A DNA stretch of 18,624 nucleotides from Candidatus Micrarchaeota archaeon (GCA_043813365.1 JBDRLB010000037.1:1-18624), one strand, 5' to 3'; counted from the first letter of the stretch, positions 16,475-18,624 are shown. The notes: generated by a model from the sequence alone, not told the origin. Program-made: numbers and translations.

Positions 16475-16506
16475 AACAATCAATGAAAATCAAGGGTGAG
16501 ATTGTT
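16475..16506 (+). promoter_or_regulatory. Kink-turn/K-loop RNA element in the rpl7ae 5' UTR (L7Ae autoregulatory site)
   Basis: 7-bp stem AACAAUC/GAUUGUU, 3-nt bulge AAU and tandem GA (16485-86) / GA (16498-99) pairs. It overlaps the SD GGGUGA and abuts the AUG. Confidence 0.75.
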
Positions 16507-17055
16507 ATGGCTAAGGAATACGTTAAATTCGAGACTCCGGCAGATGTGCAGAAGAAGATACTGGACTTGCTAGCGGATGTCAAAACCGCCAGCGGGATCC
16601 TGAGGAAGGGCACCAACGAATGCACCAAAGCCATTGAGAAGGGAGAGGCGCAGATCGTCATCATTGCGGAAGACGTGGACCCGGCAGAGATCGTGATGCA
16701 TTTGCCGCAGATATGTTCGGAGAAGAAGGTGCCTTATGTTTACGTGAAGGAAAAGGCGGCCCTTGGAAAAGCGGCCGGGCTGAACGTAGGCTCCGCTGCA
16801 ATCGCAATACAGAAAGCAGGCAACACTTCCAACGAGAACGCGCTCAAGGATATTGTCTCCAAGATGGCGGGCAAATTGAACTTCAAAGCGGAGGAGAAGC
16901 CTGCTGCAAAGGAGGAGAAGAAGGTCGCGCCGAAGAGGGCTCCAAAGAAGAAGGAGGAAAAGCCTGCTGCAAAGGAGGAAAAGCCTGCTGAAGAGGCAAA
17001 CGCTGCGCTGAAGGAGGAGAAGCCAGAGGAAAAGAAGGAAGAGGCAAAAGCGTAA
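16507..17055 (+). CDS. rpl7ae: 50S ribosomal protein L7Ae (eL8) with a long K/E/A/P-rich C-terminal tail
   Basis: YVKFETP, RKGTNECTKAIEKG, IIAEDVDPAEIVMHLP and LGKAAGL motifs. ATG 16507 follows the SD GGGTGA. Confidence 0.97.
   Translation: MAKEYVKFETPADVQKKILDLLADVKTASGILRKGTNECTKAIEKGEAQIVIIAEDVDPAEIVMHLPQICSEKKVPYVYVKEKAALGKAAGLNVGSAAIAIQKAGNTSNENALKDIVSKMAGKLNFKAEEKPAAKEEKKVAPKRAPKKKEEKPAAKEEKPAEEANAALKEEKPEEKKEEAKA
16891..16990 (+). repeat. Intragenic ~30-bp imperfect direct repeat encoding EEKPAAKEEK
   Basis: gaggagaagcctgctgcaaaggaggagaag (16891-16920) and gaggaaaagcctgctgcaaaggaggaaaag (16954-16983), plus a partial third unit. Confidence 0.8.
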
Positions 17056-17085
17056 CCTCCCGTTTTCTTATTTTGAGTGATTCAT

Positions 17086-17394
17086 ATGGGTGGACTTAAG
17101 AAGAAATTCAAGGACATGACGATGCAGGGAAAGGAGGAAACCAAGGAGTTCCGGCCTGCCGAAGGGCACCTTGCGGAAGTGGTCGAAATTGTCGGCAAAA
17201 CGGGCGTTTTCGGCGAAATCCTGCAAGTGCTCTGCAAAGTTCTCGAGGGAAGGGACAGGGGCCGCGTGATTCGGAGGAATGTGAAGGGTTCCGTGAAAAT
17301 CGGCGATTACCTGATGCTTTTGGAAACGGAAAGGGAGGCAAAGCCCCTCAAATCCAAGAAGCCGAAAAAGGACCTAAGGAGGTCGATGATGTAA
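17086..17394 (+). CDS. rps28e: 30S ribosomal protein S28e with N- and C-terminal extensions
   Basis: [56 protein letters not shown] core in the conserved L7Ae-S28e-L24e order. The start is ATG 17086 or GTG 17077. Confidence 0.95.
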
Positions 17395-17395
17395 C

Positions 17396-17584
17396 ATGGC
17401 AATATGCTCATTCTGCGGGTACGAAGTGCTTACGGGTACTGGCATGACCTACTTCAAGAGGGACGGCACCAGCATGCACTTCTGCTCCCGGAAGTGCGAA
17501 AAGAACCAGTTCAAGCTGAAGAGGAACCCGGCACACTTCAAGTGGACGGAGAAGTTTGCGACTTCAGCGAAGAAGAAAAAGTAA
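17396..17584 (+). CDS. rpl24e: 50S ribosomal protein L24e
   Basis: CSFCG...GTG...FCSRKCEKN...RNP...KWT zinc-finger signature. Confidence 0.96.
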   Translation: MAICSFCGYEVLTGTGMTYFKRDGTSMHFCSRKCEKNQFKLKRNPAHFKWTEKFATSAKKKK

Positions 17585-17704
17585 CTAGTTTATTTCAGCT
17601 TTTCCCTGATTACCTTAGCCAGATCCACGGGAGGATCGCCGTATTGGATTTCCAGCATGCACACGCGACGTTGTCCCCCCACGCTCCATGCCAGGCGATT
17701 CCTG

Positions 17705-18001: not shown

Positions 18002-18179
18002 GATATGTTTCGGATAATGATAAATATTAAGCTAACTATGGCTCACGCTAACTATTGTAAAATAAAAATGCAGAAAGTGCTTTTTTGTATTTTACGCCGT
18101 ATAGGAAAACAATTCACTGAGAGTATCTTTCAGCCATCCTGATTTTCACTTCATTGAATCCATGAAAAAATGGCTGAGA

Positions 18180-18624
18180 GAAATGTGTTATGGTCTTTAG
18201 TAATGGTTGGCTCAAAAATCGCTTGCGCTTTTTTCTTACACCCCCATCCTATCGAACTTATCTGTTATAAGCGACCTATGCGGTTTCGTTTTAGGCATGG
18301 CTTCGTCCTTAGTTAGGCGGCAAAGTCAGAATCAATCAAATTTTGCCTGACTTCGCCTATGCCTTCAGGACTTATCCATTAGCGCGTAGCTACGCAGCTT
18401 GCCTTGGAAGACAGCTGCAATACCAGCGGCGCCGGTTCCCCGTTCCTCTCGTACTCAGAGAACCTTACCCTCAAACCGCAATGCACTTCTAGGAGATGCC
18501 ACCGAACTGTCTCGCGACGTTCTGAACCCAACTAACGTAGGTCTTTAATGGATGAACAACCCAACCCTTGGCGGCTCCTGCACCGCCAGGATGACCTGAG
18601 CCGATAGCGATGTACCAAACCGCG
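18180..18624 (-). rRNA. rrl: 23S rRNA, 3' portion (end of domain V and domain VI); the gene continues beyond the window end and the 3' end is approximate
   Basis: The reverse complement contains the A-loop UGUUC, GGGUUCAGAACGUCGCGAGACAGUUCGGU, the sarcin-ricin loop AGUACGAGAGGAAC (18442-18455) and GAUAGG...GUGUAAG...UACUAA, with helix pairings preserved (GGUC/GACC, UGCGGUUU/AAACCGCA). Confidence 0.97.
18313..18358 (-). other. 46-nt archaeal bulge-helix-bulge (BHB) intron in 23S rRNA helix 97
   Basis: The insertion splits the conserved GAAGGCAU|CUAAG. It folds as exon stem GUCCUGA/UAAGGAC, central 4-bp AGGC/GCCU, bulges AU|A and AA|C, and an 11-bp intron stem GGCGAAGUCAG/CUGACUUUGCC. Confidence 0.88.

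Follow-up and report, generated by a model that had tools for sequence, protein, structure and literature searches.

The 23S rRNA segment that ends the contig considered here differs from the canonical sequence at several nucleotides of the peptidyl-transferase centre (PTC), and this raises the question of whether these letters reflect an assembly error, a dead gene copy, drug selection or an inherited rebuilding of the ribosomal core. The PTC is treated as almost invariant, and its engineering has been limited by lethal mutations. The window, i.e. the whole stretch of DNA that was analysed (18,624 nt), corresponds to an entire contig (C37) of a Candidatus Micrarchaeota assembly of 78 contigs (1.34 Mb, 88.6% complete). 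The reading preferred here, with a probability of about 0.8, is that the window carries the terminal part of a single-copy, probably expressed 23S rRNA gene belonging to a Micrarchaeota archaeon, in which the second shell of the PTC has been rebuilt, in two layers, on the side of the A site and the tunnel entrance.

The Rfam model of the archaeal large-subunit rRNA (RF02540) matches window positions 18178-18624 on the minus strand with 327.5 bits (E = 1.9e-100; gathering score 50) and is covered from model position 2581 to 2987. The match corresponds to the final 447 nt of a 23S rRNA gene of archaeal type, from ca. E. coli position 2486 to the 3' end, the 5' side being lost at the contig end so that the gene is incomplete in the window. 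No further 23S piece was detected in the 78 contigs of the same assembly, either by Rfam search or by blastn with the full locus of a relative and with E. coli rrlB. Full-length 23S genes are present in relatives, and the states given below for positions 2056, 2448 and 2453, which fall outside the 447-nt fragment, were taken from these. Numbering follows E. coli K-12 rrlB (2904 nt; L039:642-3545), in which the landmarks A2058, A2451, G2576 and A2602 occur at their expected places and the canonical 23-mer begins at 2490. An ungapped blastn alignment pairs E. coli 2490-2609 with window positions 18620-18501, so that a window position equals 21110 minus the E. coli number. The features referred to throughout are as follows.

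18178..18624, minus strand: 3' part of the 23S rRNA gene (RF02540, 327.5 bits).
18486..18620, minus strand: PTC segment, E. coli 2490-2624 (ungapped alignment to K-12 rrlB 2490-2609).
18611, minus strand: A at 2499 (C2499A), found in 53 of 54 class loci and also in other DPANN records.
18607, minus strand: C at 2503 (A2503C), common to sister orders and other DPANN groups.
18605, minus strand: A at 2505 (G2505A), distinguishing the window's order from its sister orders.
18531..18534, minus strand: U at 2576 (18534) and U at 2579 (18531), order-specific with respect to the sister orders.
18524, minus strand: C at 2586 (U2586C), in nearly all class loci read.
18497..18501, minus strand: U2609-G2610-G2611-C2612-A2614, lacking one base near 2612/2613; G2610 and C2612 set the order apart from its sister orders, which have A and U.
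18313..18358, minus strand: 46-nt hairpin insertion, a candidate mini-intron (cmscan: 49 inserted nt versus 3 in the model).

An archaeal ribosomal-protein cluster (16483-17600, plus strand), comprising L7Ae, S28e and, by eye, an L24e-like zinc-ribbon ORF, adjoins the 23S gene at its 3' end and lies on the other strand. Genes farther away encode an RNA 3'-phosphate cyclase, a triosephosphate isomerase, a pilus-type ATPase and two proteins of a membrane platform. Beside the rRNA, where several ORFs are without a Pfam match, no gene was identified as one for an RNA-modifying enzyme, and Rfam detected neither a 5S rRNA nor a tRNA in the window.

The first-pass annotation had described C2499A, A2503C, G2505A and G2576U, together with a 2610-2613 segment shortened by one nucleotide. 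The rrlB alignment places the four substitutions exactly at 18611, 18607, 18605 and 18534, and being ungapped it disposes of the worry that the numbering had been shifted. The shortened segment is likewise borne out: after U2609 the window reads G-G-C-A versus C-C-C-U-A in E. coli and u-g-C-U-A in the archaeal consensus. Three differences can be added to that list, namely C2579U (18531), by which the G2509-C2579 pair becomes G-U, U2586C (18524) and C2496U, U at this last position being the usual letter of the Rfam archaeal consensus. Opposite C2612, relatives have A2056. A2503, G2505 and G2576 are written in upper case in the Rfam archaeal consensus and are replaced in 29/29 relatives (28/28 for 2576). 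U2506, G2553, U2585, A2602 and the sarcin-ricin loop, which had been reported as intact, are so both in the covariance-model alignment and in the projected loci, and all of the bases that contact tRNA or are catalytic have been kept (A2451, C2452, U2504, U2506, G2553, G2583, U2584, U2585 and A2602).

The location of the PTC segment in the last 140 bases of the contig, and the absence of the rest of the gene from the assembly, would fit an artefact or a dead copy, whether through contig-end errors, a chimera made in assembly or an rRNA pseudogene in decay. When 40 relatives were searched, the fragment was recovered in 32 genomes, including the window's own. A 141-nt stretch shows 100% identity in four further genomes of the same genus, and identities of 92-99% in the remaining members of the order. 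The letters at 2499, 2503 and 2505 are those of the window in 29/29 loci of relatives, and so is that at 2576 in the 28/28 loci that cover it; these loci belong to nine families, and a tenth is represented by an exact match over the first 30 nt. The adjacent helix positions vary among the same relatives with compensating changes. Since the changed bases stay invariant while the adjacent helices change, the derived bases are conserved and now under purifying selection. A pattern left free at 2499, 2503 and 2505, which would also match a canonical 23S copy, gave a single match in each of the 50/50 matched genomes (121 class genomes searched). The concerns that the letters are contig-end errors, or that a second, canonical copy exists, are thereby removed by the four identical genomes and by the single copy per genome. 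A decayed pseudogene, against which the first-pass annotation had already argued, disagrees with the strong covariance-model score, the paired helices, the intact functional loops, the single copy and the 29/29 relatives alike. With the same letters also found in contigs from RNA runs, an artefact or dead copy is regarded as extremely improbable. The comparison with relatives supports the view that the C2499A/A2503C/G2505A/G2576U set is a natural, inherited remodelling of the neighbourhood of the PTC and tunnel entrance, rather than error or decay.

The RNA-run evidence consists of assembled contigs that are 5-8 letters off the window, that may come from relatives, in which DNA carry-over is possible and from which amounts cannot be read. 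In two metatranscriptome runs (X2 and X14), such contigs cover 18604-18621 with a summed contig depth of 1913 and 7392, respectively, and show no other letter at 18605, 18607 and 18611 at a listing threshold of 10%; those of X2 also span 18534. Three RNA libraries cover the rRNA part, and depth is zero in all four runs over 18100-18189, directly past the 3' terminus of the rRNA. These data also bear on RNA editing or base modification by which canonical chemistry would be restored, such as an A-to-I change at 2505 that would be read as G. The idea was entertained since an inosine there would behave like G, and nothing was seen in its favour; the RNA-run contigs carry no other letter at the three positions, with the proviso that contigs drop variants below 10% and miss modifications that leave the base call unchanged. 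Editing is held to be very improbable, though slightly less so than an artefact.

The same runs were informative for the 46-nt hairpin (18313-18358), removal of which restores the archaeal consensus length. In its fold (z = -6.13), a bulge of 3 nt and an internal loop flank a 4-bp helix, both junctions lying after the second loop base as in a relaxed bulge-helix-bulge intron. In RNA run X1, 18312 is directly followed by 18359 in one contig, which matches the window over 123 + 164 nt (0 other letters); that 18316-18351 is uncovered in X2 and X14 gives a weak hint only. The DNA run X4 yielded one contig that includes the insert (0 other letters) and another, from a relative, that lacks it (8 other letters). 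The insert could be a spliced mini-intron, or the joined contig could come from an insert-free strain. Larger inserts were seen in relatives. Helix 89 is interrupted by ca. 190-200 nt (near E. coli 2477-2480) in 5/7 full-length relatives (G002, L031:4332-4530; G004; G005; G006; G023) and not in G015 and G031, and this insert ends 8 nt before the point at which the window's contig stops (18624). It folds stably (z = -5.65), gives no Rfam match other than LSU at E <= 1, and shows no clear bulge-helix-bulge at its junctions in the fold. G004 and G005 have an additional insert near 2449-2451, and split matches in other relatives suggest further ones near E. coli 2595-2600, 2660 and 2755. The helix 89 insert and those of the other relatives may each be either an intron or an expansion segment.

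The changes do not all have the same phylogenetic depth. A pattern scan of the class found 2499A and 2503C together with 2505A in 25/25 matched genomes of the window's order, and 2499A and 2503C with G2505 in 25/25 matched genomes of other orders. A finer table of states was obtained from 54 loci projected onto an intron-free relative, domain V being read by covariance model. Almost every class locus has A2448G, G2056A, U2586C and a missing base near 2613, and C2499A occurs in all but one, a genome of family f14 that has U. The 29 loci of the window's order have 2503C, 2505A, 2576U, 2579U, 2610G, 2612C and a C2512-G2574 pair (U-A in one locus). The 20 loci of 12 sister families have 2503C with G2505, G2576, C2579, A2610 (G in one), U2612 and mostly U2512-A2574. 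In the distant families f14 and f18, A2503 is found with 2505A, C2507G accompanied by G2582A or C, A2062U, A2453C or G, and U2554C. The loci L041, L042 and L043 (genomes G102, G062 and G042; families f18 and f14) thus have a still more divergent PTC, which also includes C2499A/U and U2586C/A. Within the order, locus L012 (G018, family f10) is the sole one with U2057 and A2611, a compensated swap of C2057-G2611, and it has in addition A2609 and an A at 2555.

Two layers can accordingly be read. The older one (A2448G, G2056A, C2499A, A2503C, U2586C and the base lost near 2613) is common to the order and the sampled sister orders, and most of its states also occur in the more distant families read. 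The younger one (G2505A, G2576U, C2579U, A2610G, U2612C and the 2512-2574 change from U-A to C-G) falls on the stem of the order and has not varied since.

Beyond the class, a scan for non-A2503 states in one genome per prokaryote species returned at least 113 stretches, of which 80 were read and which provide names, not frequencies. Among the matches listed, at least 8 records carry the full motif of the order, of which 6 bear the title Candidatus Micrarchaeota or Micrarchaeia and 2 simply "archaeon"; the titles of those that combine 2499A/2503C with G2505 are Pacearchaeota, Woesearchaeota, Nanoarchaeota, Micrarchaeota and Iainarchaeum, and 2499U/2503C was met in Methanomassiliicoccales. One of the latter (Methanomassiliicoccales archaeon, G287; L081/L227) has U2499, C2503, G2505 and G2576, and several Methanomassiliicoccus-titled records among the matches listed share its 23S motif. 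Bacterial 23S-like stretches with C2503 in an otherwise canonical context were met in L060 (Lagierella massiliensis) and L086 (a Rhodothermus sp. MAG). A few non-A2503 matches in bins titled as bacteria or other archaea were set aside as they look like mis-binned DPANN contigs or chance gene matches. Two stricter patterns are of limited use as counts: one that also fixed C2512 matched 39/251 genomes of the phylum, missing most sister orders (U2512) and including at least 3 matches off the 23S contig that are probably due to chance, and a 22-nt pattern matched 2/121 genomes in the phylum of the Methanomassiliicoccales record, its fixed flanks being too strict for this to measure the rarity of non-A2503. 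The presence of 2499A/2503C in sister orders and other DPANN groups indicates that A2503C and C2499A are of old date and widely spread among DPANN. The window's order is distinguished, as read from these loci and records, by the added 2505A/2576U/2579U/2610G/2612C set.

The first-pass annotation had proposed a naturally remodelled, co-varying PTC and tunnel entrance. The remodelling holds, the changes being fixed in 29/29 relatives; strict covariation is not supported, as the changes fall on a single branch and the pairs are broken elsewhere. G2576 stacks on G2505. In the order, 2505A, 2576U, 2579U, 2610G and 2612C switch together on one branch and therefore count as one event. Elsewhere, 2505A is found with G2576 in families f14 and f18, and 2576U is combined with G2505 in an uncultured archaeon as well as in Iainarchaeum-, Pacearchaeota- and Nanoarchaeota-titled records (among the matches listed). 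The combination of 2576U and 2579U occurs in the order, in an Iainarchaeum record and in three uncultured-archaeon records, and the Pacearchaeota and Nanoarchaeota records have 2576U with C2579 kept (again among the matches listed). A compensation between 2499 and 2453, whose covariation the first-pass annotation had listed as something to test, was not seen in the order: A2453 stands opposite A2499, an uncompensated mismatch in place of the A-C wobble that E. coli has. G2453/U2499 was read in one f14 genome. Over the 54 loci, clear Watson-Crick covariation was seen only at 2512-2574, plus the U2057-A2611 pair of one genome.

Ribosomal protein uL3 was compared across the class because Nissley et al. 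(bioRxiv 10.1101/2024.11.12.623245) link PTC variability to this protein. The window's own genome encodes it on a different contig of the assembly (locus L189). At the tip of the so-called tryptophan finger of uL3, Glu is found in 14/14 genomes of the order (6 families), opposite the Trp of the Gly-Pro-Trp-His-Pro motif in a gapless alignment to solved archaeal uL3 chains. The 34 other class members read have Trp (27), Phe (6) or Met (1), two more having escaped retrieval by pattern; farther away, Lys occurs in the Methanomassiliicoccales genome (G287), Ile in an Iainarchaeum genome, and Gln with a one-residue deletion at the same spot in P. calidifontis. An in-frame TGA in the uL3 matches of two f14 genomes proved to be the gene's own stop codon. 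The replacement of Trp by Glu falls on the same stem as the younger rRNA layer. An obligate coupling of 2576U with the loss of this Trp was rejected, as three other 2576U genomes keep it; 2505A likewise occurs with Trp or Phe in f18 and f14, so that neither rRNA change requires the loss of Trp. The association of the finger change with the rRNA changes, being confined to one branch and hence to one event, is suggestive and not a rule.

Work in yeast indicates what such a change may do. The W255C mutation of uL3 causes 25S A2397 to flip, its stacking on U2873 is lost and A2872-U2875 become disordered (PMC5331904). These bases correspond to E. coli 2055 and 2503-2506 by a constant offset established here, which was checked on six base identities (PMC5331904) and on the equivalence of A2940 with E. 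coli A2572 (PMC2577335). W255C thus disorders the bases that map to 2503-2506, from which it follows that the protein prop of the very wall that carries A2503C and G2505A is also changed in the order. In yeast the finger Trp would hold base 2055, stacked on U2504, and so brace 2503-2506. In the window's order, the 2503-2506 wall is probably held differently, by way of the changed 2505/2576/2610 neighbourhood, with the catalytic bases remaining in position. Altered binding of drugs that use the 2503-2506 pocket would be a likely side effect, and at most a putative function.

Several of the changes are known from resistance work. Resistance to linezolid is conferred by G2576U and by G2505A, and Cfr targets A2503. 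C2499A confers resistance by itself in Halobacterium, in M. smegmatis together with G2032A, and influences linezolid binding from the second shell (PMC4652758). A2503C is known from bacterial mutant studies related to chloramphenicol and oncocin, and C2610G is among the laboratory linezolid mutants of enterococci. The first-pass annotation had held intrinsic drug insensitivity to be probable. We infer from the match of four changes with bacterial or haloarchaeal resistance mutations that the ribosome of the order may be intrinsically insensitive to such drugs. It could be that the changes were fixed precisely because they reduce the binding of natural inhibitors at the A-site cleft or tunnel entrance. 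In addition to the four recorded mutations and to C2610G, this would agree with the anisomycin and trichodermin resistance of yeast mutants of the uL3 finger Trp, W255C itself giving resistance to anisomycin (PMC5331904), and the same idea is raised for Thermoprotei in the Discussion of Nissley et al. Yet changes at these sites are scattered over many DPANN groups and Methanomassiliicoccales in differing combinations, which relaxed constraint fits equally well. Mutationally flexible PTC positions in vitro moreover include A2503, G2505, A2448, C2496 and U2586, with A2503 and G2505 each having a mutant of at least 75% activity (PMC7049736), and a tethered-ribosome study agrees on the flexibility of G2505 and U2586; the positions concerned are thus those that tolerate mutation best, and drift predicts the same sites. 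Selection for intrinsic resistance is considered unlikely on balance.

The alternative is nearly neutral drift with compensation, in which small populations of host-dependent DPANN archaea with one rRNA copy would have fixed slightly harmful changes at tolerant positions of the second PTC shell, later buffered by others in rRNA and uL3, and acquired no new function. The nested, step-wise arrangement of the states points this way, as does position 2503, which is C, G, U or A within the class. So do the overlap of the changed sites with the mutationally flexible set, the small genomes of the class (0.5-1.8 Mb), and the still greater divergence of f14 and f18 (A2062U, A2453C/G, C2507G with G2582A/C, U2554C). 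Against it stands that the states, once fixed, are invariant over 9-10 families while adjacent helices change; the joint change of six neighbouring sites and of the uL3 finger on a single branch is likewise not explained by drift. Its chances are put just short of even. On the present data, selection and drift cannot be told apart.

A wider interpretation is offered tentatively. The order may have a differently built A-site wall in which G2505, G2576, A2503 and the uL3 finger were replaced together, and which would be co-evolved and intrinsically insensitive to inhibitors; it would be one step in a DPANN-wide loosening of which f14 and f18 are the extreme. Returning to the two-layered second shell favoured here, the order of events is readable, with a class-level layer followed by an order-level one, and it is matched by a protein change, from the finger Trp to Glu, of a substitution class reported as non-viable in yeast. 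The loci provide concrete base combinations for the testing of epistasis and a named target for cryo-EM. They also call for caution, as conservation-based rRNA numbering, universal probes and drug-site models fail across DPANN archaea.

Three known systems can be set beside this one. The first is that of acquired 23S resistance mutations in bacteria and haloarchaea (G2576U, G2505A, C2499A and A2503C), which are the same base changes at the same positions. These arise singly under drug, often in some of several rRNA copies, and carry fitness costs, whereas the window's order combines at least four of them in a single rRNA copy, with further changes in rRNA and uL3. Nor do the latter have the recent, polymorphic character of drug-selected mutations: they are fixed across 9-10 families with one copy per genome. 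The second is the yeast uL3 mutant W255C (tcm1), a laboratory allele with translation defects at a position that is viable with aromatic, basic or Cys residues only, acidic ones being non-viable (PMC5331904). In the order, by contrast, Glu is the wild-type residue in 14/14 genomes and coexists with altered rRNA at 2503, 2505 and 2576.

The third and nearest system is the divergent PTC that Nissley et al. described in Thermoprotei and Methanomethylicia, for which P. calidifontis is the one archaeon with a solved structure (PDB 9E6Q). A literature search that reached few subscription journals found no published report of the present set of changes in Micrarchaeota or DPANN. The main text of Nissley et al. 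does not name DPANN, Micrarchaeota, Nanoarchaeota, A2503, 2505 or 2576; its figures and supplements, including a GTDB entropy plot, may touch these positions. In both systems, a clade has fixed natural changes at PTC bases that archaea and bacteria otherwise conserve strongly; in both, the 2453/2499/2500/2504 cluster is affected, the changes coincide with known resistance mutations, and there is an accompanying PTC-proximal difference in uL3 (Glu in the order, Gln and one residue less in P. calidifontis). They differ in that Thermoprotei are hyperthermophilic Thermoproteota with changes at 2447-2453 and 2500-2504, whereas the window's order belongs to the mesophilic DPANN (Micrarchaeota) and is changed at 2499, 2503, 2505, 2576, 2579, 2586 and 2610-2613, plus 2448 and 2056. 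The overlap with the Thermoprotei ranges is limited to 2448 and 2503, positions 2447, 2450-2453, 2500-2502 and 2504 being canonical here. The order stands, after Thermoprotei, as a second and independent natural experiment, carried out in another phylum and on other bases of the PTC (2499, 2503, 2505, 2576 and 2610-2612).
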